Source: a virus | Taxonomy: Duplodnaviria > Caudoviricetes | Virus record (IMG/VR): IMGVR_UViG_3300037400_004179 | Location: 3,427 to 67,426 of that record | Direction: 5' to 3' (one strand) | DNA length: 64,000 nt | In this document: positions 47,001 to 64,000 of the stretch, one piece after another | Numbering within the stretch: position 1 is the first letter of the stretch | Layout of the letters: each line of letters starts with the position of its first letter | Position numbers and translations under genes: made by a program | Notes under the pieces: model-generated | What the model saw: the letters and a program-made list of their open reading frames with translations, nothing else | Told to the model about the DNA's origin: nothing | Databases searched by the model: none

Positions 47001-50000
47001 TTATGAGCCCTTCTTCGCCCGTTCCTCCCAGATCCGTTGCGCGGCGGACAGCTTCGGTAGCATCTGAATAAATGCTCCATGCAACGAGCCCTTTTCCCGA
47101 GAGGATTCCGGCCTTTTCTGCCTGTTCTCGGGTTGGCTTGGCGTGTTCGAGGAATCCGATGTAGTCATTTATTGTCCCTTTCTCGTCATGGATGTTCGCC
47201 ACGGCGTCAAATATCTCGGCATGATCCTTCGTGAAGCCGTCGGCTTCGCGGAAGACGTAGTATAGCATGGACTTATTCAGCCTGTCGGCCATCTCGCTGC
47301 GGTGCCGTCCGGTGATTACGGCGAGCTTGCCGTCCTTCGTAAGCCACACCGCACCAATGCCGCCCATCGTCGGATGCCAGTCGCCTGAAAGCGGCTTTGT
47401 GATGCCGCTTGTCCGGTTGGCGTCCTTCTTCATGTTCGGCAGAATCGCGTCGGAACGGTCAACCTTTTTCGGGTTCAGCCGAACGACAGGCGCTTCCTGC
47501 CCGAGAATCGACAGGAAATCAGACGATTCGGGCACTTTTTCTACGGCTTCAACGCCTGTCATGTCCATAGCATCGGCAAGCGTCTTGCGCTCCTCTTCGG
47601 TCAGCGGCGCCTTGGCCGCTTGCGCAACATCGTCCACAGACGCGATTTTCCGCTCTCTGGGCGCGTTTTCGGGTTCAGGCGTGACCTTCTTCGTCTCGGA
47701 GCCGCCCTGCGCTTCTGCGGGCTTGGCGGGGGTTTCCGCGACGATAGGCGCGGGGTTTTTTGTCTCGGTTGCCGTTTCGGGCGCCTGTTCCTGTGTCGGG
47801 GCGGGCGCTTCTGGCTCTTCGACGGCGGTATGGTCGGCGTTTGCGTTAGCCGGGATGAACTCCACGCCGCCGTTCGCGGTCGCGCTCTCCTTCTCGATAC
47901 GGCTGGCGATGACCTCAAGATCGGCGTCGTTCAGCTTGCCGACCTTGCCGAAAAGCGCATGGGAAATCCGCTGGCCTATCGAAGGATTGTGCCCGCGCTT
48001 CTGGAGCCACTGCGAAAACGCCTCTTCGCGGAGCTTGTCTTCGGGCAGCCTGCGCTCCTCGCCGCGAGCCTCGTTCATCTCGCGCATCTGGCCGAGAAGC
48101 CTCCCGTACTCCGTGTCGGGCGACACGCGCGAAAGCATCTCCTGCCTTGCCGCCGGATCGCCCTTGCCAGCCGCATGTCCCGATTCGTGGGCAAGGACGC
48201 GGTTCATGTCCGCCGCGCTCTCGATGTTGTCGAGAACCATGACGACCGTTCCGTCCGGGCATGTAAAGCCGCCGGCGTCGGAACCGCCGATCAACGTGGG
48301 CGGATACGTCACCGAGCCGTCCTTGCCCGTGACGAACAGCTGGGACACGTCCCTGATGCCGTGGAAATCGCCGTTCTTGGCAATCTCGCCCTGCACGACG
48401 CGGAATACGTCGCCCACATGGTCGGCAATCTCCGTCGGACGCTGAAACTTCGTCTGCGTCAGCTGTTCGGCGTAGCGCCGCTTCACGGCGTTGTCGAGGG
48501 ACTGCTTCTGGTTCGTGAGGGCGTAGAAGTCGGCGCACCTCTGGGCCTCGCCAAAGTCGTCTATGGCGAATACGCGCTCGGGGTGTATCTCGTCGCGAAC
48601 TTCGTATGTGCCGTCCCCGTTCTCGATCATCGTTACGCCGGACTTCTCGTCGTACATTTCGTTGACGACTTCCGTCTTCCCCGTCACGCCGTCGGTGCGA
48701 ATCGACTTGCTGAACTTCGGGACAGGCTTTCCGTCGGCCCCGGTCTCGGTCTGCACCTCGAAACGGCGCGGCGATTCGCCGTATTCCGCCACGTCCTTCT
48801 GGAGCTTGTAGGTGGACTGCTTCGTCAGCTCGTCGGCCATCTTGCCGAGATAGCCGCCCGCCTTTTCAAGCGCGCCCCTGAGCGCATCGGGGTTGTCGTG
48901 CATCGCGTTCCACGCGTTCGCGAACGCAGCACGCTGGCCGAGCGACATTGCGCCGACCTGCTCCTTCGTAAGTCCGCAGACGCTTTCAAGCTGGTTGCCG
49001 ATGTCGCGTTTCGCGTCGATGTGCTGTATTGCGGTCTTCCCTCCGGCTACCGCCGTCTGCGCGCCCATCTGGAGAAGCATGGCCAGCATCGTGTTCCACT
49101 GTCCGCCAACCGTATACTGCCCGCCCTCGTCGGTAAAGGCGTGCCTCAACTCCTCCATGACGCCGCGGTACTCGGAGTCTTTCTTCCCCCAGCCGAGAAC
49201 GTCGCTGAAAAAATACTGAACGTTCTCTTCGGGAAGCTCCTCAAAAAGCATGTCGCCGAAGCCCGTTACGTCCGTCAGCCTGTTGTAGTTCTGGTAGACG
49301 CGGTTTGCCGCGCGCCCGATCTTGCCACCGTGCTTGCCGAGCAGGGAGAAGGTCTTTCCTGCGAGAGGACGCGTGATCTCGCCGACCGTGTTTTCCAGAA
49401 GGTTCTCGGCGAAGCTGTTGCGAAAAGCCTTTCCGAGCGTATCGCCCTTGTCGCCCTCGGACGCCACAACGACGTTTCCGTTCTGATCAAGCGCGTATTC
49501 GTCACGCGCCATTTCGCGCATTCCCTGTGCCGTGCCGGACATCGTGGCCGGCATAGCCTTCGCCGCATCGACGCCGACCTTCTGCGCGGCGACCTTCGCA
49601 AATTCCTTTGCCCCTTCCGATGTGAAGAGCTTTTTTAGACCCTCCTTTGTCAGCAAGTTGAAGCCGAGCTTTGCGGTCTGTGCGCCCTTCATGAGCATGC
49701 CGCCAGCCGCCATCTCGCCGACGTAGCGGACGGACGGCATGCCGCCCACGACGATCTTGTCGGTGAAGCCCCTGTCGGTTTCGTCGAGCTTTTTCCGCGC
49801 CTCCTCCTGTGCGCCAACAGATTCCTTGAACTTCGCGTCGACAAGCTCTTTCAGGCGCTTCTCGAAGTCTGCACGAGGCTCCTTGTCGCCTCTTTGGGTC
49901 TGTGTGATGTTTGCGCCGAGCAGGTAGGCCGCCTCGTCCGCCATCATGTCGTCGAGCGTGTCGCGACGATCCCCCATCATCATGCCGAACATGCCGCGAC

Positions 50001-50457
50001 CGAGCGCCGCCTGCTCCGGCGTCTGCTCGCGTCCGTTCACGACGCGCTTCTGTAGATGCGGCTTGCCGTCGATGAAGTCCCTCATCCGCGTCAGGCGGTC
50101 TTTCTGCGTCTGCTCGAAGTCTCCGCCGGCGAACGGGACGAGATTCGCGAAGGCATAGCGGCCCGCCCCGTCGCGCTGGCCCGTCTGCGCCTGCCACTCA
50201 AGTTCCATCAGCTCGCCCTTGCTTCGCTTCACCTTGTCGCTCTTCTCCGGCGCCTTCGGAGAGTAGACCGAAGATGTGCCGAGAGAGCCGCGCAGTTCGT
50301 CTTCGCTAATGCCAAGCTGCGCGGCAAGCTTGGATTCCGTCTTCTGACCTTCCCCGTCGTCGATGAATTTCGGGCCGGATGCCTGCGCATCGTCGATGAA
50401 CTTCGGCGCAGACGGCATTTCGTCGTCGATGAATTCAGGCGTCTTGAAATCGCTCAC
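35080..50457 (-). CDS. giant (~5125 aa) DarB-like polyvalent virion protein: HExxH peptidase, ParB-like, kinase-like, N6-adenine MTase, SNF2 helicase and helical C-terminus
   Basis: Likely GTG start at 50457 overlaps upstream stop (GTGA); VLAHESGH (~48180); ITGRHR (~47310); LETSAGVGNF, VELD, SNVPFG (43250-43750); HCVGAGKS, VDEAHNFK, QRDGRGIRAGN (39600-41700). Confidence 0.88.
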   Translation of the reverse strand: MSDFKTPEFIDDEMPSAPKFIDDAQASGPKFIDDGEGQKTESKLAAQLGISEDELRGSLGTSSVYSPKAPEKSDKVKRSKGELMELEWQAQTGQRDGAGRYAFANLVPFAGGDFEQTQKDRLTRMRDFIDGKPHLQKRVVNGREQTPEQAALGRGMFGMMMGDRRDTLDDMMADEAAYLLGANITQTQRGDKEPRADFEKRLKELVDAKFKESVGAQEEARKKLDETDRGFTDKIVVGGMPSVRYVGEMAAGGMLMKGAQTAKLGFNLLTKEGLKKLFTSEGAKEFAKVAAQKVGVDAAKAMPATMSGTAQGMREMARDEYALDQNGNVVVASEGDKGDTLGKAFRNSFAENLLENTVGEITRPLAGKTFSLLGKHGGKIGRAANRVYQNYNRLTDVTGFGDMLFEELPEENVQYFFSDVLGWGKKDSEYRGVMEELRHAFTDEGGQYTVGGQWNTMLAMLLQMGAQTAVAGGKTAIQHIDAKRDIGNQLESVCGLTKEQVGAMSLGQRAAFANAWNAMHDNPDALRGALEKAGGYLGKMADELTKQSTYKLQKDVAEYGESPRRFEVQTETGADGKPVPKFSKSIRTDGVTGKTEVVNEMYDEKSGVTMIENGDGTYEVRDEIHPERVFAIDDFGEAQRCADFYALTNQKQSLDNAVKRRYAEQLTQTKFQRPTEIADHVGDVFRVVQGEIAKNGDFHGIRDVSQLFVTGKDGSVTYPPTLIGGSDAGGFTCPDGTVVMVLDNIESAADMNRVLAHESGHAAGKGDPAARQEMLSRVSPDTEYGRLLGQMREMNEARGEERRLPEDKLREEAFSQWLQKRGHNPSIGQRISHALFGKVGKLNDADLEVIASRIEKESATANGGVEFIPANANADHTAVEEPEAPAPTQEQAPETATETKNPAPIVAETPAKPAEAQGGSETKKVTPEPENAPRERKIASVDDVAQAAKAPLTEEERKTLADAMDMTGVEAVEKVPESSDFLSILGQEAPVVRLNPKKVDRSDAILPNMKKDANRTSGITKPLSGDWHPTMGGIGAVWLTKDGKLAVITGRHRSEMADRLNKSMLYYVFREADGFTKDHAEIFDAVANIHDEKGTINDYIGFLEHAKPTREQAEKAGILSGKGLVAWSIYSDATEAVRRATDLGGTGEEGLITPNQATTIAQAAPKGAHERNAFIQSVLLRAAKSGMKGKAFTGYAREMTRQLQSGAVNKNLLQGEQMDLFQDESFLAMEALTKRRNEYRQRKSNIYAEVASNIRSALNRQGKLELNAEYAKELGVTDKTDKAQLEKAYDLATERADYWDPAGTRILEDADVKTMDAEINAKADAAAKKRAEAKAKVEAIKAKRAGKPAPATPETKKAPAETKAKVSETKAASPETKKPVLETPKPKAETPSADNSTSELAPKPEKQTPPVLESRTTEKPATASAVQTQTTADEPDPAMVERIFANTIFQGGNRAAKIKAIVDTWRQIRGMVRPGEKINIAKIYEKIGSRDAVDRALGYPDPFTGKRWDGRQEYEDNSFGTYKVTRPQEDAKKPEKTRSQESRQVEQKPKKRTVKLKDADAEKKAKDILDALDFDTKQLDPDRHERRTFDILMPDGKIVQAHGYTRRQAQGYANKYHPGGVAYEQGGAKNAIIASLRERGYGSYVKASQGYPDAARVSGTAFHRAVAAGITHGRTKFEANAALEQANQQGVDVRGGSGIRKGTRPLASVVAGKSERASERGWRYFSDGTVVIPIFDGTPGKAANAFLDILRINAAFGGYEVTGYAEDEKGNLYAVANGPKVVARAEPLFENREKFLKDHGFTKSTDTRFGDRLWEKQNPHIVVDEEELKLARTADGGYTALHAAISGPLEAGVDFDDKSFDYEKFGRLVTGVGKLVDVLSESGHKDFKSLAAYIYESDPAKFERAKPVLQDIWNAVAKQKGLERVSDERADEIYGTISVSAEEGNENVDVRQSGKPDAPSADGISELRPAAPASASGEEGRGNVATQQGERSSDQPVHDDGERRAAGVSVVGDEVRQPVSELHEERGQGDGQKAELPPSDTREHSGRSTESGESGRRLEPGQSDALHGVAASDPVEAAHKASPEKPSNYVITDEDAEWLTNSTPREKVANNIEVIKLLNDLEGEGRLPTPEEKTKLARYVGFGGFPQALDQKYKDAYEKYGGIPSKELPAQTQAALRKLRFGLKGFDNYVQLRELLTPEEFKALHRATIDAFYTTIDVCRDIHAALKASGFNGGRMLETSAGVGNFIGTGRYQDAQWTAVELDKTTGKILGYLYPLSNVKVQGFEETPIPPGFMDAVVSNVPFGQIHLHDPEYNKLNFPIHDYFIARGVDRLRVGGVAAFITSTGTLDKLDKSLIRYLEQHGGKIVGAVRLPNEYQQKNAGTAVASDIIFIQKEKGEVDNSAFARNGEIEGLKINGYFAEHPEMIFATVKRGTSMYGNTPALEFVATKDLAELPALVKKAAEGLKYIPANEVSKPDPISLDADKSGLRRGNIGIVDDKVVKREGDMLVPVDTSKIKWPKKFSDKGFSFLGAVKQFIALRDAYNAYIDAQKNGTEDSVKMKRLSLNTAYDAMIARYKSFNNEKVMRELFDLDDADGIVLQQLEAYDLVPDGVGANGKPKMKKANFRKSDALKKRTLFGATRATKADTPMDGLRISLNECGRVNIPRIAELTGLPADEVQKQLVQSGHVFQNPSTGSFETRDEYLSGSVRRKLREARAAADVDPAFNKNVEELEKVQPEDKPATKIRYQMGQRFIPNDMYRDFLAEVVFGCNPNHVTVGYDEKADTWRVTGEAVNPEYARRSPISLEELLKRIFNGSPLTIKDRVDDGGGKYHYVLNPQKTQQAESLRDDLTAAMSKWLVATPERAERVKRSYNDMMNDDVPRRWDPDLITLDGISDVWKGRANTPGYEHQKRTIARGVLGGNLCIAHCVGAGKSFEMFSICMQLRRLGLAQKPMLTVPNHMVESGQVLKEFLEAYPGARVLVATSRDLATANRRKFLAKAANGDWDCIVVPHSSFSLIGMDPKVQAEYIQREIDDLREMMEAEARESGKKGNAVKRIEKKIANKTAKMQKLLDASKKDSTVPFENIGVDYLLVDEAHNFKGLDITTRMQNVSGVTGSVSQRAQDMEMKCRYLSKLHGGDKGVIFASGTIISNSISEMYTTMRFLSPTKMAEMGVRRFDDWARAFGVVETKPMPRASGKGYQEKTRFAKFQNLVEMKKFFHSFADVVLDEDLNIPRPFMIGGKPIVHKIPADPTQVAKVEELDKRLDSFKGGYDPKIDNPLKVVTEGRLVAIDPSLLGLKSEHRRLESAADEIYRIWQKSTGKAAKDGKTVLDGTQLVFCDSGVPKPRKFSRVVQTSDGGFATKSGNYWQFYVSPVDANGFRHARAVRSDGAKFSPKPFLDHQQGGVEDISTVYAAFEEMALTAAEYNVSHKMADKKHAAEPAGSPFDINAWIDQNAATLGYDIRFENPFAQERASAPEELDEDVDEGIAEEDEEDGEENGDPDEKLNGDVGVENMLRGKFNIYAHLKQLLIRRGIPESDIAFIHDAENADMKRALFADFNGVNTNFRGGKRILIGNTPKMGEGANVQKRLVAIHHLDVPWKPAWLIQRDGRGIRAGNLNAEIGIHRYVTEGTFDVYSYDKVSTKQQFINQAMNHDMSVDEVEDVDDAVLSAEEAKAAAAGPLGKYMLERVKLTESLRKADLTLSNQRSDLRNAQLGMESDQERLERTMRIAEETKKKISDFNAAKGDSPFGIEVVDTEGSFAGKTLTDNDEIARFLADKCNQFVRKGAEDGIIGRLYGFPVWWHEHRGSSGIEPSGAIEIPALRRDVTSSAPGVPNIPIVNRVAVITKGTVALLKSAVTRATGEGVLAELDQSVEAAKRRFEASAESLAKMSVDESLPGKIDDMIVRLAEVNGILGIKDEGAKKAAAKILDERINSDREAQAAAIALAKINQPVPVERQIADLEKEMGEVEFDTKDLDPDRIGVVPTSEEDVKLYGFTNAEIAGAMTAAGMEPPKHAVKTDEVLMKQADALLSNREYMRKLAHAVYQKGRATRDYENVALGIYADQCASVLNDAKSASDDMERMVEELPSDTDAETVEELKKRAKEMKLELAKAQREFREASVAKMQGASEQGRALRSNRIAVDAADYSYAGLRGMVQTELGGMEIPGKMDAEIGRLAENFKNLDEQQRQMAVERLKLFSQKIVDDIKRGDKTRSMTPRGAGNELKRVTRNYNDALNQIEVHADEAGGTLIGLADQLYPSWGKWLRAIGEYHCFMNPDIDEQGVIDAIRRDVGQFLDDGIDEETVRDVLTGFGQNYRQSRYDSQRKMNDLKAQSLAKRQRDYMLENGRLPPQTGMVRDEPSDETRALRREVQEMKKDIDQQEGGPRALKGALDSAKTRIKNQIADLERAILRGEKIERARRTVVEDVELHNLKARRDELRKTYDDLFGEKSTLTDEQRRARAEKALQKVLENALERLGRARTGDFSNNRVANPVTSDEIEHLREQIRWTNETYRALKKAAFPEGTPEEIEKRNAMRMKARERAILRIQEKILNGDIRPTVRKTPPMPEDMQSRYDAMGEELRRAHRKMRQLRAEAREMLRPVYMRKIGDAYRFIDGVWKMATASLDLTQVGNQTGSLAVAHPAITARSFTQSISAFTSEANAENIESDLMTEPVVKEAVDNKWLHWKKAGDFAENRGDRVEFFDAIDRGFTIGGRTVRLTDIPVYGTAIANSDRLYATYINTVSANLYSTIVKDPGLFPSGASTFEKKMVCDMINVMNGSGTLSKNARSVLGKVLWAPGLVDSQFKRHLGYTIWHPWMASAEEDGSGTMKERARMSWLGTKEFLKSHIGAMLLGGLLLALFGRDDDKDKFKRASLAQKAIMLMAPRIGHTQLDFTGGEVAFGRLGNKLLSGVKEGGNGRTTPIRDYFGEVAHFLRGRVTPLISNAFAALAGKDYAGQDYGPLEVMLSLAPISLRDAGKSIWENGRDGEWLTGIIGASLVMTGFGKGTYRKDDYKILSNKFREDYSSIEKIARDPMLDESEKEELIENIRTSNPLMKPEVAATIIGHVRQVDSEEREINRSIKKLELARTNPNPNINVAEVQKEIEKALLELNAEKEKVVKMIRDNR
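44250..44618 (-). CDS. nested +1-frame gene inside giant gene (122 aa; weak TnpV-like resemblance)
   Basis: TGGTACAAT at 44656-44648, AAGGAAACGAAA-ATG; GC3 bias lies in this frame while giant frame has A/T third positions. Confidence 0.6.
   Translation of the reverse strand: MSMYDSLGSLMRQALTAYRNCDPQLLLQHLEKRDAGTWLLNRAKGAQISLYTTTENDAQRAFLWSETKYDSLFPNYTKSADRETVKKLNYHLRTQGNIVDEALKAANLGDDWNPDNPTPYTE
45264..45536 (-). CDS. nested +1-frame gene inside giant gene (90 aa)
   Basis: TGCTATAAT at 45568-45560, GAGGGAAAGAGG before ATG; GC3 bias shifted to this frame. Confidence 0.5.
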   Translation of the reverse strand: MEATSKPAKDILTPQEYQELLFIGQLPRGSRTDEQSSRRMQLLSKLINRGWTFEAEAAYEREHGLSPRSSQENPSGQASADGATSPTEPS

Positions 50458-51962
50458 TTCGTGGCCTCCTTGGTTGAATGGAAGTTCCCGTCGCTCCACA
50501 TGTAGTATGTTTTGCCCTTGCGTGTCACACTTCCGCCGACGGGCACATTCATGCCATCGGTGTATTCCACGCCATCCTTCCATCCACCATTATCGCCTGA
50601 CTTTATCTCGCCTTTATCCGCCGTCGGCTTCGACTGTCCGCCGGCGTACTTCTTCTTGAGAGACTCGATGCTGTCGAGGTATTCCTGCTGGAACTGCGCT
50701 TTCTTTTCGGCGGGAAGTCCCGAAAAGACCTGCGCGGCCTCGTTGTGCCCGTCCTGCGCGAGCTTGTAGGCGAAGATGTCCTCGTTCAGCTGCTGGGACC
50801 GCTCGCCCTTGTCGATCCGCGCCTGAAGCTCCTGTCGGCGGAGTTCGAGCTTGTCCTGCTCAAGCTTCAGCTCCGCCTCGCTCTTGCCGCCGCCCTTCGG
50901 CGCAACCTGCGCGACTTCGAGATTGCCCTTGTTCTTCAGCTCCTGCACCTCCTTCGCGCTCTCGGCGCGCACCTGTGCCGCCTGTACGCTCGCGGGCGTG
51001 TTCGCCCCGACCTGCCACTTGAAGGGATTAAGGCCGCCGAACTCCGACACGGTGGACGCGCGGGCGTCCGCCTCGCTGACGTTGTTGAGCGTTGCAAACG
51101 AGGTCGAGAACTGGTTCATCACGCGCCCGAGGTCGAGCGGGACAAGCGACTTGGACGCCTTGGAGCCGTCGCTCTTGTTCACGGCCATGTAGAATGCGGG
51201 ATCGGCAATCGGCTTCCCGTCGTCGTCAACCTGCACGTAGGCGGCGATTTTCGACAGCGAGGACTTGCGCCCCATCGCCTCGGACTGCGCGTTGGCGCGC
51301 TCGATGGACGAACCGCCCACGGACACGACGCGGTACTTCTTGCCGTTGTGCTCCTTGACTTCGCCAAGCCCCTCGTTCATCAGAAGCCGAAGCGCGTTCT
51401 TCGCGGCCTGCGCGGTCGTGAAGTTTCGCTCGGCCCTCTGCATTTCGCGCTCCTTCTGGCTTTTCAGCATGAAGTCATACGCCTGCTGTCCGCGCGTCTT
51501 CGCATCGGCGAGACGCGCCGCCTTCTGCTGCTCGATCGCGTCCGCCCACGACGTGGCCGTGCCCTGGTTCGGGGAGATGCCGGAAGAAGCCGCCTCCATC
51601 ATCCTGAGAGACTGCGGGGCTTCCACCGCGTTGCCTTTCAAGTCCTCCCATGTCGTCGCTCCTGTCTTCTGATCAACGACGCGCACATAGCCGCCGAACG
51701 CCGTGCGGCCTTTGCCGTCCTTGCCGACAACCGTCTGGGGCTGTGGCTGCTGCGTGGGTGTGGCCGTCGGCGCCGGCTTTGCCTTCATCGCGTCGAGCCG
51801 TGCCTGCGGTATGCTCGCGGCAGCGTGCATCTCGTCGGTGATGCCGGGGGCGCGGCCAATCTCCGCAACGGATTTCCTGTACACCTCGTCGGGCGCCATA
51901 TTCTGAATGTCGTTGATCTCCTTGAGCTTCTGATCGAACTCTGCATCTGTAAGGTTAGCCAT
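50454..51962 (-). CDS. putative internal virion / DNA-ejection protein
   Basis: 502 aa, Ala/Gln/Lys-rich coiled coil, directly upstream of giant gene. Confidence 0.55.
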   Translation of the reverse strand: MANLTDAEFDQKLKEINDIQNMAPDEVYRKSVAEIGRAPGITDEMHAAASIPQARLDAMKAKPAPTATPTQQPQPQTVVGKDGKGRTAFGGYVRVVDQKTGATTWEDLKGNAVEAPQSLRMMEAASSGISPNQGTATSWADAIEQQKAARLADAKTRGQQAYDFMLKSQKEREMQRAERNFTTAQAAKNALRLLMNEGLGEVKEHNGKKYRVVSVGGSSIERANAQSEAMGRKSSLSKIAAYVQVDDDGKPIADPAFYMAVNKSDGSKASKSLVPLDLGRVMNQFSTSFATLNNVSEADARASTVSEFGGLNPFKWQVGANTPASVQAAQVRAESAKEVQELKNKGNLEVAQVAPKGGGKSEAELKLEQDKLELRRQELQARIDKGERSQQLNEDIFAYKLAQDGHNEAAQVFSGLPAEKKAQFQQEYLDSIESLKKKYAGGQSKPTADKGEIKSGDNGGWKDGVEYTDGMNVPVGGSVTRKGKTYYMWSDGNFHSTKEATK

Positions 51963-53725: not shown

Positions 53726-54997
53726 TCAAGATATATACTCCCAAATTTGTATTGTCGGTGCCCCCCTGTAGTCGTGCGTAGGCTCCAAGTTGGCGTTGAA
53801 ATAGTAAAGCGGAACATAGGTCTTGTATCGGGTTTGTGCTGGGATTGAACTCGCTCCCGTCACTATACTCGCGGTGAATAAAGTAGCTTCCATGTCGACT
53901 TCAAGATACGCGTAGCCAGCGGCAGACACTGTTGCCGAATCAACATTATACCAAGTTCTCGCACGCAGATACATTCCGTCATTGATGGTGTGCGTCTCTG
54001 GATCGTAGGAGAACGCGCAGCAGGAACAATGCCCGCCGCTTCCGCTTCCTCCTCCGTCGCCGCCACCACCAATGGTTAGACGCGTAAGCTTAACCATCGA
54101 ATCGACGTACTGAACAACCTTTTTCTCGCCCGTCGCGGCAACCGTCGACACCTTCGCAACCAAGACAGCATATGTCACATAACCGCTGGTGCTGCCCGAA
54201 TCTGAAACTGGCTGCGTATCAAAGCAGGCGGAACTATCCTCCGGTGTCGCATCATCCTGATTGGGCACCGTCGCATTGAGCCAAACGTCGCCGTCGGAAC
54301 TGCCGTTTGGAAGCGTATACCATCCCGCAGGAAGAGACTGCGCGGCGGCAAGTCCCGTCGGTTCGACATAGATGCGCCCGATCATCAACGGTCCGAGCTT
54401 GTTATTAGGGAGCGTGCCGGGAAACCAAATCACCCATGCACCTTCACCGCCGTTCTCACCCTGCGCCCAGCGGACCTCGTAAGGATGAAGCATGTGCGTG
54501 CCGAGCGTGACGCACGATGTGCAGATGTCGTACTGGTCGCCGTCGTTCTCGGATGAGCCGAAGCGACAGACGCGGAAGTTGAACAGCGCACCCTCCTTTG
54601 TGTCCTCGTCGTCGAACTCCACCTTGTATCCGCCTGCCGAAGACGCGTCCTGCGTGACGTGCGCATAGAGGGCGTCCGGCATGTCGTCTGGATCGAGGCA
54701 GTCAAGCGAAACGGTGTGGGATTCCGTGTCCACGTCCGCGATCTCCACTTCATGTCCGTCCACGAGGACGCATCCGGGCGGAGCGAAGATGTAGTATTCC
54801 CCGTCCTCGGGGTCGTAGTCCACCTCGAACGGACGCGCGTAGGGCACATCCTCGGCGGAGGGCCCCGGCGACACGGGAATCTGCGCGGCGGATTTGCCGC
54901 GCTCGTTCTCTGTCGCGACGACACGCCTTTCGAGAAGCTCCACTGTGCGGCGAAGCTCCTCTATCTCGCGTTCAAGCTCCCTTGTTTTTTCGCTCAT
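53726..54997 (-). CDS. modular tail-associated protein
   Basis: 423 aa; N-terminal coiled coil, beta-rich domains, GGGGDGGGSGSGG linker; GC drops in 3' half. Confidence 0.5.
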   Translation of the reverse strand: MSEKTRELEREIEELRRTVELLERRVVATENERGKSAAQIPVSPGPSAEDVPYARPFEVDYDPEDGEYYIFAPPGCVLVDGHEVEIADVDTESHTVSLDCLDPDDMPDALYAHVTQDASSAGGYKVEFDDEDTKEGALFNFRVCRFGSSENDGDQYDICTSCVTLGTHMLHPYEVRWAQGENGGEGAWVIWFPGTLPNNKLGPLMIGRIYVEPTGLAAAQSLPAGWYTLPNGSSDGDVWLNATVPNQDDATPEDSSACFDTQPVSDSGSTSGYVTYAVLVAKVSTVAATGEKKVVQYVDSMVKLTRLTIGGGGDGGGSGSGGHCSCCAFSYDPETHTINDGMYLRARTWYNVDSATVSAAGYAYLEVDMEATLFTASIVTGASSIPAQTRYKTYVPLYYFNANLEPTHDYRGAPTIQIWEYIS

Positions 54998-57783
54998 GAC
55001 AGGCTCGCAAGCAGACTGTTAATGATGAATCTGTGATCGTTCGACATCTGCTGCGTGACGAACGCGTGCTTGCAGTCGTTGTCGCAGACCTGCCACGCCT
55101 CCGCCTGGACGAGATCGACCTGCACCCATTCGGCGAGGAGATTCCCGTCGGAATCGGAGTACCGCTCGATTAGCTTGACGCCGAGCGTGCCGGGGGTCGT
55201 GCGCTCGGGATTCGCGCGGGCGAGCTCGTTGAGGTAGTCCCAGAACGCGTCTCCGCGGATGCGGCGCGGTTCGATGATCCATTTCCTGTGCGACCAGATG
55301 CGCGTGCGGCGGCGGCGCTTCACGTCGTAGTATTCCTGTCTCGCGCCGTGCTTGATGAACTTGTAGTCCTTGGCGCTGAACTTCCACCGCCCCGCGAGAT
55401 AGCTGTAGGTGCATAGTCCGTCGTGGAGTCCAAATGCGTTGACCGAATCGTTGAGGCTCACGCTGTCGGCGTCTGACGGAGCCTCGTTTATCTCCGACTG
55501 CTGGTTGCGGTACTTCACGACGTAGTGCTTCCCGCGCTCGTCCTCCCAGTGGTAGCGCTGAATCTGCGGAACCGCCGTCACGGTCTCGGTCGTGTTGTTC
55601 GCCGTTCCGTTCCCCGTGAGATGCCCCGACTTGTGGACGATCTGGCCCTTCGTAAAGGCCGTTTCCGGGTTCTGGAGCTCCTTTTCGTTCTTCGTGACGG
55701 AGTGGCGGTGGGTGAAGCTGTCGCGTGTGCAGCCCTCGCCCGTTTTTCCCGCCGGCTTCTCACCCTCGGTAGTCTCCACCGTGTCGTAGAGCCCGCCGTC
55801 CGTCCTGCGGTTGGAGACGGACTTGCCGACCTCCGTTGGATCGGGAAGCGGCGCAGACTGGTTGCGGTTCACGACGCGCACGGTGAGTCCGTTCAGAGTC
55901 ATGCGGGCGGTTCGCTCGGCCTTCGGCACGGACTTCTCGACGGTCTCGCCTTCCTCGATGCGGTACGCGCCGTTCGAGGTGCGCGAAACGCGGCGTTCGC
56001 GTATCACGCCGCCGCCGGCTTCTTCGACATGCGTAAAGCCGGGGTCGTCCGACTGCACCGTGGTCTTGGAATGGCGATGCGCGTAGAGCGTCTTCGAACA
56101 TGATTCGGCAAGTTTCAGAAGTGCGTTTGGTACGAGCTTGCGAATAACCTGGTTCCAGAGTCCGCCCGGCGTCTTCGTGTTCTCGACGCTTTCCCCTATG
56201 TCCGTCGGATCGGGGGCTTTGCTCGGCTGGTTGCGGCGGTGCGTCGTCTTCACCGTTCCATCAAGGCCGATGGACGTCGATTCGCTTGCGTCGCCTACGG
56301 GAAGCTCCGTGGTCGTCGAGTCGCTGATCTGGTACGCGCCGTTCGAGGTGCGCGAAACGCGGCGTTCGCGTATCACGCCGCCGCCAGCAGATGAAACGTC
56401 CGACGCTCCGGGATCGGCGCTCTGCACTTTCGTGTTCGAGTGCGAATGCTGGAACACCGTCTTGCTGCAAGCATCGCCGATCTTTATCAGCGTGTTCTTT
56501 ACGAGCGTGCGTATCGTGACGTTCCAGAGCCCCCCTTCCGTCCTGGCGTTCTCGACGCTCTCGCCAATGTCCGTCGGCTCTGGCGCGGGAGCGGACTGGT
56601 TGCGGTGCGTCACGGAGCGCGTCTTTCCCGAAAGTCCGACATGCACCGCTTCGTGGGATTTCTGAACCGGCTTTTCGGTTGTCGTCGAATCCGTTATCTG
56701 GTATGCGCCGTCGGCGGTGCGCGATACGCGCTTGTCGTGGACCACGCCCCCTTCCGCCTCTTCGACATGGGAGAAGCCGGGGTCGTTCGACTGGACCGTC
56801 GTGTTGGAGTGCGAATGGGCGAACAGCGTCTTGCGGCAGCTTTCGGCGATCCTGATGAGGGCGTTGGGAACAAGCTTGCGGAACACACGCCGCCAGAGGC
56901 CCCCTTCGGTTTTCGTGTTCTCGACGTGCTGGCCGATGTCAAGGCCGTCCGTCGGAAGCGGCTCGGACATGTTGAGGTCGGTCGTGGTCTTGACGGTTCC
57001 CGTAAGACCGACGGATACGGATTCGGAGTGCTTCGGCGACGCAAGCTCCTTCACCATTTCGTTGTGAACGTCGTGCGTGCAGTCGGCGTTCTTCGTGACC
57101 TTGCGGCGAACGATCTTCCCGCCGCCGACGGAAGCCTGCTTGCCGCCTGCGTCAAGTTCGCCGCGGACGCCGTGGTGGACCTCCTCCCGCGTCTCGTGCG
57201 TCGTCGTGACGCCTGTGACGTATTCGGGAATGTCCTGTTGGACGCGTTCGCGCTTCTCGATGGCATACGAGTAGAGGCCGTTTTCAGGATCGCGCGAGAG
57301 GTTGATGATGTGATAGGAGATTCCAGATTCGGAAGCCGGAGCCTGCGGCACGGACTCTTGCCGCCAGTAGTAGGTCAGCGAGACTTTGTAAGCGCATCCG
57401 TCTTCGACGAGGTATGGGCCGTCGCCTATCGCCTCGGGCTCGAGCGCAAGCGCGTGGTAGAGACGGATTGCATGGACGCTTCCGACGGACTTGTTCGATA
57501 TTTCGTACCACGCCCGGATGGGCGTCCATGCCGGATCTACGGTCTGCCCATAAAGCTGGAGGGTTGAACGACAGTCGTCCGAAGCGAGATATTCAAGAAG
57601 CAGAGGGCAAAGCTCCTCGTCCATCTTCACCTCTTCGACAAAGCGGACGAGAGTCTTTTCGTGGAACTGGTATTTCCACTTCCCCCTGTTCAGCACCTGC
57701 CACTTTCGCGCGGGCGCCGTGCACCACTTGGCGCACTTGACTATCTCTGCCTCGGACAACGCCATGACACACCTCCTTACCAC
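54994..57783 (-). CDS. 929-aa tail-region protein with 3-4 internal ~123-aa repeats
   Basis: Recurring RNQS.P.P.T.IG.SVEN..T.GGLW and H.HS.T.VQS.DPG; identical 55-bp DNA at 55962-56016 and 56331-56385. Confidence 0.6.
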   Translation of the reverse strand: MVRRCVMALSEAEIVKCAKWCTAPARKWQVLNRGKWKYQFHEKTLVRFVEEVKMDEELCPLLLEYLASDDCRSTLQLYGQTVDPAWTPIRAWYEISNKSVGSVHAIRLYHALALEPEAIGDGPYLVEDGCAYKVSLTYYWRQESVPQAPASESGISYHIINLSRDPENGLYSYAIEKRERVQQDIPEYVTGVTTTHETREEVHHGVRGELDAGGKQASVGGGKIVRRKVTKNADCTHDVHNEMVKELASPKHSESVSVGLTGTVKTTTDLNMSEPLPTDGLDIGQHVENTKTEGGLWRRVFRKLVPNALIRIAESCRKTLFAHSHSNTTVQSNDPGFSHVEEAEGGVVHDKRVSRTADGAYQITDSTTTEKPVQKSHEAVHVGLSGKTRSVTHRNQSAPAPEPTDIGESVENARTEGGLWNVTIRTLVKNTLIKIGDACSKTVFQHSHSNTKVQSADPGASDVSSAGGGVIRERRVSRTSNGAYQISDSTTTELPVGDASESTSIGLDGTVKTTHRRNQPSKAPDPTDIGESVENTKTPGGLWNQVIRKLVPNALLKLAESCSKTLYAHRHSKTTVQSDDPGFTHVEEAGGGVIRERRVSRTSNGAYRIEEGETVEKSVPKAERTARMTLNGLTVRVVNRNQSAPLPDPTEVGKSVSNRRTDGGLYDTVETTEGEKPAGKTGEGCTRDSFTHRHSVTKNEKELQNPETAFTKGQIVHKSGHLTGNGTANNTTETVTAVPQIQRYHWEDERGKHYVVKYRNQQSEINEAPSDADSVSLNDSVNAFGLHDGLCTYSYLAGRWKFSAKDYKFIKHGARQEYYDVKRRRRTRIWSHRKWIIEPRRIRGDAFWDYLNELARANPERTTPGTLGVKLIERYSDSDGNLLAEWVQVDLVQAEAWQVCDNDCKHAFVTQQMSNDHRFIINSLLASLS

Positions 57784-59737: not shown

Positions 59738-60247
59738 TCAGTCTGCCAGACACTGCGCCAGGAGCGCCGCGACCTGCTCGTCGGTCCAGCCGACCACTGT
59801 TTTTAGTTCCGCCACCCCTTGTTTGAAGTATGGGTCGTCGTCACGGAAGTCGTTTGCGATCATGAATGCGTCCCACAGGTCGTTGGCCTCAAGCCATGCC
59901 TTAACCTGTGGCCACACACCCGCGCCTCGTAGAACTAAGTACGCCTTGTACTTTGAGTATATCGTCGGCACTGCTGCGCCGATTGCCGCCTTTGCCTCGC
60001 GTACCCAGAGCTGCGCCGTGATCACATCCATGTTGATCGCGTTTTCGGCTACCCGCGTCTTCACCGATCCATCTGGCTGCACCTCAAACGCACCAAACAC
60101 CTCGATGTGCGTCACCGTCTCACCCTTGCGCTCGATGCGCGGGTTCGTCGCTGGAATCTCCTCCGGCGAAAATGTCGCCTCTCGTATTTCAATGGCGCTT
60201 GCCGCCACAGCCGCAAAAGCCATTATTACTATCAGTAGTTTCTTCAT
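59738..60247 (-). CDS. tail-fibre-assembly-like protein with signal-peptide-like N-terminus
   Basis: Starts MKKLLIVIMAFAAVAASA, overlapping RT stop (ATGA); C-terminus F..DDPYF...VGWTDEQV..LL. Confidence 0.55.
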   Translation of the reverse strand: MKKLLIVIMAFAAVAASAIEIREATFSPEEIPATNPRIERKGETVTHIEVFGAFEVQPDGSVKTRVAENAINMDVITAQLWVREAKAAIGAAVPTIYSKYKAYLVLRGAGVWPQVKAWLEANDLWDAFMIANDFRDDDPYFKQGVAELKTVVGWTDEQVAALLAQCLAD

Positions 60248-61356
60248 GGTGTGTTCCTTTCCTGTTCGGGGTTTATGGTTAAAACGCCGCTCTCGGCTTC
60301 CTTTGCGGTAATGCCGACGGCCTTGAAAATCTGCGAATACTTCCCGTCGCGCCATCTGCGCTTCAAGCCTTGCGCGTCGCTGTTCTTTATGTAGCCGTAA
60401 AGCGACGCAAGCGCAAGCATCTGCCTGTAGTCCAGTTCGTCCCACTTGCGCGACATAAGCCGCTCGATGTGGCGCATCACCTTGCGGCCCGGAAGTATTC
60501 GGTCGTCCTCGATCCGCCAACCGCCGCGCTCTACGGCGTGGTGTCCGGCGGGATAGTGCGCCCATTCGTGCGCCGCAAGCCCGCGCTCCGCGCACCATTC
60601 CTCGACGGCCTCGCGGATTTCGTGCGCCGCTCCCTTCGCCTTTGTTATGTAGGCGGAGTTGTCAAGGTGGCGGGCGTAGCCGAGGCATCCCTTGTGCCCC
60701 TCGACAAGCGCGTCCATCGGCGCGAGTACCATGTTCGCGATCATCGCGGAATATCCCGCGCCAATCGGCAAGCCGTCGCGCTGCCCAAGAAAAACCTCGA
60801 TGAGGTTGCGCACCTCCGGCTCTCCGAAAAGCCGCCACATGGTGTCGCGCATGAGGCCGTAGCCGAGGGATTCGTAGTACCCGGCCATGTCATACTCGCT
60901 CACCCACGCCCGCCACTTGTTCCGCGCGTTCGGGTGTCCCTTGTTCCAGATTCGGCAAACGTTCTCGGCGCGGCGGATTCTGCGGCTCAACTCCGTCGCA
61001 AGCAACAGCCCGCCGCGTTCCGGCACGGGGCAGTACGAATGGCGCGACATTCTCGCGTAGGCTCTCGGCTCCATCTGCTGAACGCAAGCGCGGACGCACA
61101 TCGCGTCCTGTGGCTCGTAGCAGCGGACGTGCCGCAGTTTGCCGTGTTCCATCGTGTCAAACTCCACGAAACGCCCAAGGCGCAAGCCCCCGGCGATCCT
61201 GTCGAGGACGTACTTCGTCCAGTAGTCCTCGCGGAGAATGAGGTCGAGCGCGAAGCCGTTGCGCTTGCACCGCTTCGTCTGCGCCTCCTTGCGGACGGCG
61301 GCGCGGCAGTTTTCGACCGTGACGATCTTCCGCCAAACATCCCAGATGTGGGTCAT
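60244..61356 (-). CDS. DGR reverse transcriptase (divergent)
   Basis: GKLRHV, motif A EYDMAGYYESL, motif B GLPIGAGYSA, motif C YARHLDNS; directly downstream of TR; GGAGG RBS before ATG 61356. Confidence 0.88.
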   Translation of the reverse strand: MTHIWDVWRKIVTVENCRAAVRKEAQTKRCKRNGFALDLILREDYWTKYVLDRIAGGLRLGRFVEFDTMEHGKLRHVRCYEPQDAMCVRACVQQMEPRAYARMSRHSYCPVPERGGLLLATELSRRIRRAENVCRIWNKGHPNARNKWRAWVSEYDMAGYYESLGYGLMRDTMWRLFGEPEVRNLIEVFLGQRDGLPIGAGYSAMIANMVLAPMDALVEGHKGCLGYARHLDNSAYITKAKGAAHEIREAVEEWCAERGLAAHEWAHYPAGHHAVERGGWRIEDDRILPGRKVMRHIERLMSRKWDELDYRQMLALASLYGYIKNSDAQGLKRRWRDGKYSQIFKAVGITAKEAESGVLTINPEQERNTP

Positions 61357-61613
61357 GCCGCCGCCCTCCTGTTGAAGTTCGTTTTCAGGGCATCTCTTTC
61401 CGCTCGCGCCTCTTCCAACGGTCGCAAGCAACCTACCAAGCCGCGCTTCTTAAGCGGAGATTGACTCGCGACCCGCGCCTTGCGGCGCACATCCGGCGCG
61501 AACGCCAGACGGACGGAATCGCCTTTAATGAGTTGCGGCGTTTCCGCCGCGTGATTGAGAACAATGCGCTGCAAGGTTGGGCAAGGAAAGAAACAAATAC
61601 CGCCCTGCGTAGG

Positions 61614-61711
61614 TGTGCGACCGCCCCAGTTGTTGCCGTTGGCGTTGGACGGCCCGTTGTTCGAGTTCACGTACCACGGGCCAATCGCGTTGTTGCGGTT
61701 GTTCGACAGCG
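61614..61711 (-). ncRNA. DGR template repeat (TR)
   Basis: 98 bp; 11 AAC codons in the VR frame; 85/98 identical to VR. Confidence 0.95.
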
Positions 61712-61784
61712 TGCGCATGGTTCAAATTTCCGTCGGTTTATCCTCGTTTGGTCTTTCCTTGTGGCATCCCAGATTGTTTTCCGC

Positions 61785-64000
61785 TCATTCGCTACGCGCT
61801 TCGCGCTCCGCTTCCAGAAGGGAAGGAGATGCGCGACCGCCCCAGATGCTGCCGTAGGCGTAGGACGGCCCGTTGAACGAGTTCACGCACCACGGGCCAA
61901 TCGCGTGGCTGCGGGCGTACGACAGCGAACACATCCAGTACGACAGGGCGCGGCCCGTTGACGGCTGCGCCGGATAACTCGACGGCGCATATATTCCGTC
62001 GTATGCGGACGAGTTGAGGTTGTAGTTGAAGATGTCGCCCGCTTCCGTCGGCGTTGTCGCGACAAGCCCGAAAGCGGCATACTGCGCCTTTTCGTCCTTG
62101 CCCCTGTAATATGTCCCCGCAAGGCCCGTATATGCCCAATAGTAGGAAAGCCGCTCGTAGCCGCGCGACGTAAAGGCGGTGTATTCCGTCGCCGTGCCGG
62201 AAGTGTTGGGCGCAAGCCGCGAATGGTCGAGGTTCGCCATGTACCAGATCGACTTCGTGCCGTCTGCGTCCGTCTCGGCAATCGTCGTCGCGTCCACCAT
62301 CTGGTCGCCCTCGCTCCCCCAGAAGTTCAGGATGCCGAGCCACGAGAACGGGTAGCCGTTCGACGCTGCGGGCGCAATCGTGAAGGTCGTCAGGTTCGGT
62401 TGCGCGTCGTAGTAAAACTCCAGCTCGTCCTGCCGCGTCTCGGCGAGGGACGTATTGTTGTGGCCGTAAATGCCCGTTATATGGTTCTTGCCGTCCTTCG
62501 CCCTGAAACTTCCCGTCGCTTGCGCGTTGGCCGAAAACTGGATATAGGCGAGAACGCGAAACGCCTCGTAGTCGTGCCAGTTGTTGCCAGTCCAGCGGCG
62601 GGCCGCCATGTCCTCGTTGTTCGTCGCCGCCGGAAAGTACGCGGTCGCCGCGCCGAGGGTCGTGCCGCTCACGTTGTGGACGGTGAAGCCGTGGTTGTTC
62701 AACTTCTGCGCCCGCGTGTGCAAGTCGCCGCGTGATATGCCGAAAACGCCATAATTCGAGCCGTCGCGGTAGGGCCACGGGTAGGACTGGATCGTGTAGT
62801 TGTTCGATCCTGTCATTCGCCAGTTGCCATCCTTTGCGCTTGTCGGCGTGGATTTATAACAGGCGTAGTAGTTGGCCTCCTTCACGCCGATCTCGCGGGT
62901 CGTCCAAGTGTCCGTCGTCTCGTCGTAGTCGCGGGCGTAAATCTTCTCCCACGGCGGGACGTAAAAGGCGCGGTCGTAGCCGTTCGTGATTTCCGGCCTC
63001 GCCACCCACTTTATCTGCAAAGGGCACTCCGTCACGCTTGCGACCGTGCCGTTCGCGTTGAAGTTCGTGATGGGGATAGTCTCGATTGTTTCCTTGTAAA
63101 CGTAAATCGGGACGCGGGCGAAAAAGTAAACGTTAGTCGCGGGCGTCGCCTGTCCGCCCGTGTGTTTGAAGTCGTCGTCGAACACAAACGCAACGCGCTC
63201 CGCCTCACACCACGGAAACGCCGAGCCCTCGTATGCTGCGGAGAGGTCGCCCACTTCGTCAAGGTTGCCGACGCCGCCCGATTCGCCCAACTGCGGCACA
63301 AGGTTGTAAACGTCGCACTCCGTCACCCAGACGCTGTTCGAGTAGTACCCAAACTGCGTCACCCATGCCGAGGCCGTCTCGTCCCATACGCGCTGCACGG
63401 GGAAGGATTCGCCCGTCGTGCGCTTGCCGTGCGCGTTGTCTGGGTCGTAGTATTGCGCCCGTCCCACCATGCGGAGCGTCGCGGCCTGTCCGTGTTCGGG
63501 GTCGAGCGGTTGGAGCGTGTCGAGCGCGACCTCCGCTATGTTGCCCTGTGTGACGTGTACGATCTGGTCGCCCGCGTCGTAGATGTGGTCGGCGGCTCCG
63601 AGGTGCAGCCGCACGGTCACGTCGACAAAACTTGAACAGGGGACGAAAACCTGCTGTACCGCTCCGGCGCGTAGGCTTTCGACGGGGATCGTGTGCCGCT
63701 CGTTCGGCATCTGGATTGAGATAAACGCGCCGTCGAGTGCCTTGAAGTATTCCGCGCCCTGCGGGACGTATGCCGTCGGCCCCGCGTTGAACGTGAAACG
63801 GATTCCGCCGAGATACGGGGACGCGGCCTCGCCGCCGACGACGATTGACTTCAACGCCGCCACGTCAAGCGCGGTCGCGGTCAGTTTTGCGTCTACGGCC
63901 ATTACCTGATTCGATACGCCCGCGACCTGCGGATAGTCCGCGAGGCGTATGTCTGCGGCGGCGCAAAGCGCGGCGGCGGTTGTTGCAAGTGCTATGAGTT
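61785..64000 (-). CDS. DGR target protein with C-terminal C-type-lectin-like variable domain (5' end beyond window)
   Basis: VR encodes SYARSHAIGPWCVNSFNGPSYAYGSIWGGRA near C-terminus; frame stays open to window edge (LIALATTAAALCAAAD...). Confidence 0.85.
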   Translation of the reverse strand, partial: LIALATTAAALCAAADIRLADYPQVAGVSNQVMAVDAKLTATALDVAALKSIVVGGEAASPYLGGIRFTFNAGPTAYVPQGAEYFKALDGAFISIQMPNERHTIPVESLRAGAVQQVFVPCSSFVDVTVRLHLGAADHIYDAGDQIVHVTQGNIAEVALDTLQPLDPEHGQAATLRMVGRAQYYDPDNAHGKRTTGESFPVQRVWDETASAWVTQFGYYSNSVWVTECDVYNLVPQLGESGGVGNLDEVGDLSAAYEGSAFPWCEAERVAFVFDDDFKHTGGQATPATNVYFFARVPIYVYKETIETIPITNFNANGTVASVTECPLQIKWVARPEITNGYDRAFYVPPWEKIYARDYDETTDTWTTREIGVKEANYYACYKSTPTSAKDGNWRMTGSNNYTIQSYPWPYRDGSNYGVFGISRGDLHTRAQKLNNHGFTVHNVSGTTLGAATAYFPAATNNEDMAARRWTGNNWHDYEAFRVLAYIQFSANAQATGSFRAKDGKNHITGIYGHNNTSLAETRQDELEFYYDAQPNLTTFTIAPAASNGYPFSWLGILNFWGSEGDQMVDATTIAETDADGTKSIWYMANLDHSRLAPNTSGTATEYTAFTSRGYERLSYYWAYTGLAGTYYRGKDEKAQYAAFGLVATTPTEAGDIFNYNLNSSAYDGIYAPSSYPAQPSTGRALSYWMCSLSYARSHAIGPWCVNSFNGPSYAYGSIWGGRASPSLLEAEREARSE
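61830..61927 (-). repeat. DGR variable repeat (VR) at 3' end of target gene
   Basis: Offset 216 bp from TR; 13 mismatches, all opposite TR adenines on the coding strand. Confidence 0.95.

Follow-up and report, generated by a model that had tools for sequence, protein, structure and literature searches.

Motif C of the reverse transcriptase (RT) described here, which belongs to a DGR in the genome of a phage, ends in Asp-Asn (HLDN) in place of the usual Asp-Asp. This is a conserved trait under selection, it is not a lesion. The explanation that we consider most probable is that the element is an active DGR of an uncultured phage, which works without Avd and uses its own RT with a remodelled active site. 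Polymerase activity and the production of cDNA by this enzyme are inferred: There is no biochemistry for any RT of this type. What we have shown is the anatomy of the element, its conservation, purifying selection, the flow of information from TR to VR and the population-level diversity of VR in genomes which contain this RT alone. In what follows, DN and DD stand for Asp-Asn and Asp-Asp at the end of motif C.

The DGR Cassette

The stretch of DNA that we have analyzed (the window, 64,000 nt) corresponds to the last 64 kb of an IMG/VR record of 67,426 bp, which is 100% complete according to CheckV. The DGR cassette is found at the end of this record, and all its parts given below are on the minus strand. 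Its order is target gene with VR, TR, spacer and RT, followed by a 169-aa ORF. The target gene (61785–64000) remains open where the window, and with it the record, ends. An ATG at 63902 gives a protein of 705 aa. VR (61827–61934, 108 nt) is found at the 3' end of the target ORF, has a 95-nt core at 61833–61927 and encodes approximately residues 657–692 of the 705-aa reading. The 108-nt copy of this repeat, TR (61611–61718), is found 216 nt downstream of VR, is rich in AAC codons and shows 100% identity with that of three sister phages. Both copies end with the same GC-rich block of 13 nt, CTGGGGCGGTCGC, which is IMH-like: It marks the 3' boundary of VR at 61833–61845 and is identical in TR at 61617–61629. 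Beyond this block, TR and VR diverge.

All 12 mismatches between TR and VR in the core are found at TR adenines. Adenine accounts for 24 of the 95 TR bases, and the probability of such a result by chance is about 7e-8. Immediately 3' of the core there is a further A-to-G change, and with it the count reaches the 13 adenine-only changes of the original prediction. We have not found a second VR for this TR within the 64-kb window. A hairpin after VR is no better than those of shuffled sequences (z = -0.3).

The spacer between TR and RT has 254 nt. It includes a conserved block (61390–61467), which presumably corresponds to the Sp-like, structured 3' portion of the DGR RNA. The conservation of this block is far higher than that of the RT protein. 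It contains a 5-bp tetraloop hairpin with compensatory changes in three pairs, and the whole predicted structure shows them in 5 of 21 pairs. As only five sequences have been compared, these changes are suggestive. Rfam gives no match within 61200–62000. An ORF of 121 aa is listed over TR and the spacer (61353–61718). It matches no family, overlaps the conserved RNA block and is probably not a gene.

The RT gene (60244–61356) codes for 370 aa and its start is preceded by AGGAGGG. It contains no internal stop codons, so the claim of an intact ORF held. No other RT is present in the complete 67,426-bp record. Avd has not been detected either: There is no match to PF05635 at E<=1 across the whole record, and there is no room for Avd between the target stop and TR.

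The 169-aa ORF downstream of RT (59738–60247) has a signal-peptide-like N-terminus, and its ATG overlaps the RT stop (ATGA), an arrangement which corresponds to translational coupling to RT. This ORF follows RT in every related locus. Nevertheless, its identity between the window's phage and two close relatives (L005 and L006) is only 50–52%, though the RTs are 97–98% identical, therefore it has been exchanged or is evolving very fast. It might be a component of the DGR. The gene order is conserved, but membership has not been shown and no function has been assigned.

Identity and Active Site of the RT

The RT belongs to the DGR RT lineage. Three results agree on this. When the family profile is compared with PDB, the best match among solved structures is Bordetella bRT (8ub7, E=1.4e-18, residues 2–340). 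The AF2 model of the protein (pLDDT 92.7) has 8ub7_A as its top Foldseek match, with a TM of 0.81 on the target. A profile search with the RT family recovers thousands of DGR-type RTs. The Pfam RVT_1 profile gives only 18 bits, which is below the cut-off.

Profile alignment with bRT allows us to establish the equivalent residues: D156 corresponds to D138, D232 to D215, N233 to D216, E154 to K136, I198 to I181, A204 to Q187 and R75 to R74. Motif A, SEYDMAGYYES (60868–60900), contains the catalytic Asp156 as well as Glu154, which occupies a site that is lysine in DD-type DGR RTs (K136 in bRT). Motif B, LPIGAGYSAMIAN (60733–60771), retains Ile, Gly and Ser, while Gln is replaced by Ala. Motif C, YARHLDN (60658–60678), comprises residues 227–233. 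Asp232 is kept, and the third position of the canonical triad is Asn233 in every member of the clade, with codon AAC at 60658–60660 in the window. The canonical triad is thus incomplete. AVERGGW (60517–60537) aligns with INFLGY of bRT.

The original prediction had noted HLDN instead of YxDD in motif C, IGAGYSA instead of the (I/V/L)GxxxSQ signature in motif B, and AVERGGW where LGY is usual. All three readings held, with a qualification: IGAGYSA and GG(W/F) are found in the whole family, also in the DD-type sister clades, therefore they are family traits independent of the asparagine.

We have considered whether Asn233 might be an alignment artefact, and this has been rejected. In the HMM alignment with bRT, LDN coincides with MDD. 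The artefact reading is also countered by the model, where residues 231–232 are found at the turn between strands 224–230 and 233–238.

Previous data on DGR RTs bear on these changes. In the 155 DGR RTs of DiGReF (PMC3521204), both aspartates of motif C are 100% conserved. The SQ pair shows several variants (SP, SH, NQ, PA, AQ and VQ), SA is absent. In bRT, the change Q187P leaves the frequency of adenine misincorporation unchanged (PMC7826257). The motif (I/V/L)GxxxSQ is a signature and does not represent a functional requirement. Residues I181 and R74 of bRT promote adenine mutagenesis (PMC7826257), and both are retained in the window's RT as I198 and R75. In the cryo-EM structure of bRT, the distances of a putative Mg2+ to D138 and D215 are 2.2 and 2.3 A (preprint 10.1101/2023.10.23.563531). 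These two residues are the equivalents of the aspartates which the window's RT keeps.

Conservation and Origin of the DN State

An HLDN allele which was unique among YxDD homologues would have pointed to a dead copy. This is not what we have found: Every close homologue reads (H/N)(L/M)DN. This applies to all 13 homologues (clusters at 90% identity, 56–98% identical to the window's RT) and to 11 metagenome or viral loci, all with intact ORFs. In a cluster with 81 members, the 15 members listed all keep HLDN. The next relatives, with 30–44% identity, read R(Y/F)MDD.

The clade is under purifying selection. Values of dN/dS, calculated by the method of Nei and Gojobori (NG86, 1986), range from 0.05 to 0.42: 0.05–0.17 for close pairs and 0.17–0.42 for distant pairs. 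Between subclades, synonymous sites are near or at saturation (dS about 0.8–2), and the value could not be computed for one of the loci (L008). Both AAC and AAT are used by members of the clade as codons for the asparagine. Residues D156, D232, K73, R75, I198, G199 and S203, which are catalytic or contact the dNTP, are invariant across the DN clade.

A tree was prepared with IQ-TREE, with the columns of motifs A and C removed and ordinary DGR RTs as root. In this tree the DN clade corresponds to one branch (SH-aLRT 99) within the DD-type relatives. The DN state is therefore derived and old.

No close relative is found in GenBank phages, where identity reaches 22–29% in the best matches and Butyrivibrio is the only host named. 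Species-representative genomes contain DD-type sisters alone, no DN-type RT was found in them, and one DD-type sister is carried by a Verrucomicrobia MAG. The sole host lead for this phage is the contig of a close relative, which one source labels as a Kiritimatiellae MAG.

Recurrence of Asp-Asn and Its Covariation with a Lysine

The DN state is not restricted to this clade. A profile search of 1.8 billion representatives gave 12,428 hits, and motifs were surveyed in the best 150. Outside the window's clade, 12 further DGR-type RTs read Y(M/L/C/N)DN, 11 of which are full-length enough to be included in the tallies. In a FastTree tree prepared from 159 DGR-type RT representatives, of which 24 are DN, 10 changes between the DN and DD states are required.

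We have scanned all alignment columns, without bias towards any of them, for covariation with the DN/DD state. The top column is the residue two positions before the aspartate of motif A (the -2 position). Lysine or arginine is found there in 114 of the 135 DD-type sequences and in none of the 24 DN-type sequences. Lysine itself is present in 84% of the DD-type RTs, including all DD-type members of the window's own family, and is absent both in the 13 DN sequences of the clade and in the 11 others. The second-ranked column is found two residues after the asparagine, a spacing which in a beta sheet would place both on the same face.

If random recent lesions accounted for the 11 other DN sequences, lysine would still be expected in about 81% of them, and the probability of finding none is about 1e-8. 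This figure ignores relatedness. A phylogenetically independent-pairs test is limited to only five supported pairs: 4.4 go in the same direction and none in the opposite direction (p about 0.06).

A further example comes from a fresh viral scan, which detected an unrelated DN-type DGR (L028). Its motifs read AELDI, IGAYTSQ and RYMDN, and all 16 mismatches between its TR and VR are found at adenines. Its DD-type neighbours with an aligned motif A carry lysine in all cases (49/49). Apart from this locus, the viral scans for more DN-type RTs yielded nothing useful. We infer from these data that DGR RTs have a Lys-Asp pair, which is exchangeable as a unit. We should note that the contact between K136 and D216 has not been checked in the coordinates.

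Evidence of Diversification

The window's phage (W) may be compared with three others (L005, L006 and L007) whose RTs are 95–98% identical. The TRs of these four phages are identical, apart from a change of GGC to GCG in L006. Their VRs are all different and differ only at positions which are adenines in TR. The TR variant of L006 is also found in the VR of L006, therefore information has passed from TR to VR after these lineages split. In the RT genes of W, L004, L005 and L006, dS is just 0.09–0.14. The VR of L007 (L007:3430–3533) also has a 3-nt insertion relative to TR, located within the mutagenised stretch.

The same situation is found in 14 target proteins with 87–96% identity, each with a unique VR. 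The 12 positions with Asn codons in TR show 5–9 different residues each, the flanks are invariant, and the TAC codon toggles between Tyr and Cys. Among more distant DN-type loci, 15 of 16 differences between TR and VR are adenine-specific in L008, and 10 of 12 in L003. The fraction of TR adenines changed is similar in both types of element, 0.42–0.58 in DN-type and 0.48–0.68 in DD-type elements. We have not seen a distinct mutational spectrum in DN-type elements, when five of them are compared with four DD elements.

These VR differences between contigs prove that the lineages diversify. They do not prove which enzyme made the cDNA.

The Target Protein

Full-length relatives of the target have about 740 aa and start with a stretch, MKKLL, that resembles a signal peptide. 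Such a start is unusual for a DGR target of the phage tail-fibre type. The target has no match in Pfam or PHROG. Its AF2 model has a mean pLDDT of 55, with values below 50 in the VR part. This is too poor for a fold search, and a C-type-lectin or Ig-like fold remains undecided.

The histories of target and RT do not coincide. One DN-type locus (L003) has a target which is 71–72% identical to those of two DD-type loci (L016 and L017) and 62% identical to that of the window. On the other hand, its RT is 59% identical to that of the window and only 36–40% identical to those of the same DD-type loci. This disagreement suggests an exchange of modules between related phages.

Comparison with Known Systems

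The DGR of Bordetella phage BPP-1 (mtd-VR / avd / TR-Sp / brt, with bRT structures 8ub7–8ubf) is one of the known systems nearest to this element. Both elements have the order target with VR, TR, spacer RNA and RT, adenine-specific differences between TR and VR, and a GC-rich 3' boundary shared by both repeats. As shown above, bRT is the best match in sequence and fold, and the Ile of motif B (I181) and the Arg of the fingers (R74) are retained. There are also clear differences. The window's RT has HLDN for YMDD, Ser-Ala for Ser-Gln, GGW for LGY and Glu for K136, and is just about 17% identical to bRT. Avd has not been detected in the window's element, whose target lacks a Pfam match and has a signal-peptide-like start.

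A second comparison concerns the DD-type sister clades (P0014–P0032 and P0036–P0038; loci L016–L020). They share the cassette order, a homologous target and TR, a similar spacer block, IGAGYSA, GG(W/F) and the downstream 169-aa gene, and all their TR/VR mismatches are found at adenines. They differ in having RYMDD and LKxDI, while the DN clade has R(H/N)(L/M)DN and x(E/Q/M/T)xD. Identity between the two is only 30–44% for the RTs and 61–72% for the targets.

The other DGR-type RTs with Y(M/L/C/N)DN, including L028, also have Asn for the second Asp and have lost the -2 lysine. They correspond to separate lineages, and most of them have kept both the motif C Tyr and a signature with SQ or SH.

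Outside RTs, the L polymerases of Mononegavirales have GDN in the homologous palm-domain motif C, which shows a working Asp-Asn (PMC13181354). These are RNA-dependent RNA polymerases of eukaryotic viruses, so this is only an analogy and does not imply a close relationship. In HIV-1 RT, the change D186N is reported to be strongly defective. In the literature we have searched, no paper links YMDN, YxDN or HLDN with reverse transcriptase.

Proposed Mechanism and Its Significance

In the mechanism which we propose, which is the usual one of DGRs, the element's own RT would copy the RNA formed by TR and the spacer into cDNA, with misincorporation opposite adenines. This cDNA would then take the place of VR in the 3' end of the target. 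The remodelled site would keep D156 and D232, with N233 in place of the second Asp of motif C, His or Asn in place of the motif C Tyr, and E154 in place of the -2 Lys. The second Asp of motif C would not be an indispensable metal ligand, but the partner of the -2 lysine, and the Lys/Asp pair might be exchanged for a non-basic residue and Asn.

A bolder reading, to which we incline without much margin, extends this to DGR RTs as a whole. The third catalytic Asp would be dispensable in these enzymes and would co-evolve with the DGR-specific lysine (K136 and D216 in bRT). The pair would have been swapped for a non-basic residue and Asn about ten separate times, and the resulting two-carboxylate RTs would remain capable of adenine-mutagenic retrohoming, perhaps with changes in their use of metals or in the rate of catalysis.

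YxDD is regarded as an invariant feature of RTs and is the standard site for knock-outs (SMAA in bRT). It is also used to decide whether an RT or a DGR is functional, and annotation procedures apply it as a filter. A conserved and selected clade of Asp-Asn DGR RTs, with diversifying targets, provides natural exceptions to this rule, and the coupled lysine change offers a specific and testable structural reason for them. The question raised is the role of the third carboxylate in RT catalysis, and in the low catalytic efficiency which has been linked to adenine mutagenesis. This is relevant both to RT enzymology and to the rules for DGR annotation.

Alternative Explanations

According to the original prediction, either this RT clade works with only two of the three canonical aspartates, or the element is recently inactivated or complemented in trans. 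Our results support the first reading, with enzymatic activity inferred and with VR variation shown between genomes. A dead or recently inactivated copy, whose VR pattern would be a fossil of past activity, is practically ruled out. The change from Asp to Asn needs a single base, and the RVT_1 score under the Pfam cut-off might also suggest decay. Nevertheless, the asparagine is fixed across a clade with saturated synonymous sites, dN/dS is well below 1, the ORFs are intact everywhere, and VRs differ among phages whose RT genes differ by a dS of only about 0.1. We have kept complementation in trans as a rival, although we consider it improbable. The HLDN protein would not polymerize and would be kept for another, non-catalytic purpose, for instance to bind the DGR RNA or to protect it. 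The cDNA would be made by a DD-type RT of the host or of a co-infecting relative. In favour of this idea, the DD-type sisters have homologous targets, similar TRs (84–91%) and a similar spacer block. Such homologous cassettes show functional equivalence of DD and DN elements, yet they leave a small opening for service by a co-infecting relative. Against it, the complete phage record contains no other RT (the host genome is outside our data). The invariant residues of the DN clade, both aspartates included, would not be needed by a protein which only binds RNA. The approximately 10 origins of DN, always with the coupled loss of lysine, resemble the co-adaptation of an active site.

Another possibility, which appears even less probable, is a relocation of the third carboxylate, in which the role of the lost Asp would be taken by Glu154 (or by Glu162, also of motif A). 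In fact, 11 of the 24 DN-type sequences, that of the window included, have Glu at the -2 position, and the proline of FFPS is often Glu or Asp in the DN clade. However, the other 13 have Q, S, Y, V, N, M or T at -2, and several members of the clade have A, Q or P at the second site. With such varied residues at both candidate sites, no replacement carboxylate is general.

Other Features of the Genome

Two other ORFs on the minus strand of the window should be mentioned. A single ORF of 5,167 aa (35080–50583) takes up a quarter of the phage genome. When scanned in four pieces, Pfam only gives a weak match to Helicase_C (E=5e-4). Another ORF, of 929 aa (54994–57783), has no PHROG match and contains several internal repeats of about 130 aa, with modules of the type ...GESVEN.KT.GGLW... 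This ORF probably codes for a fibre or decoration protein of the virion.
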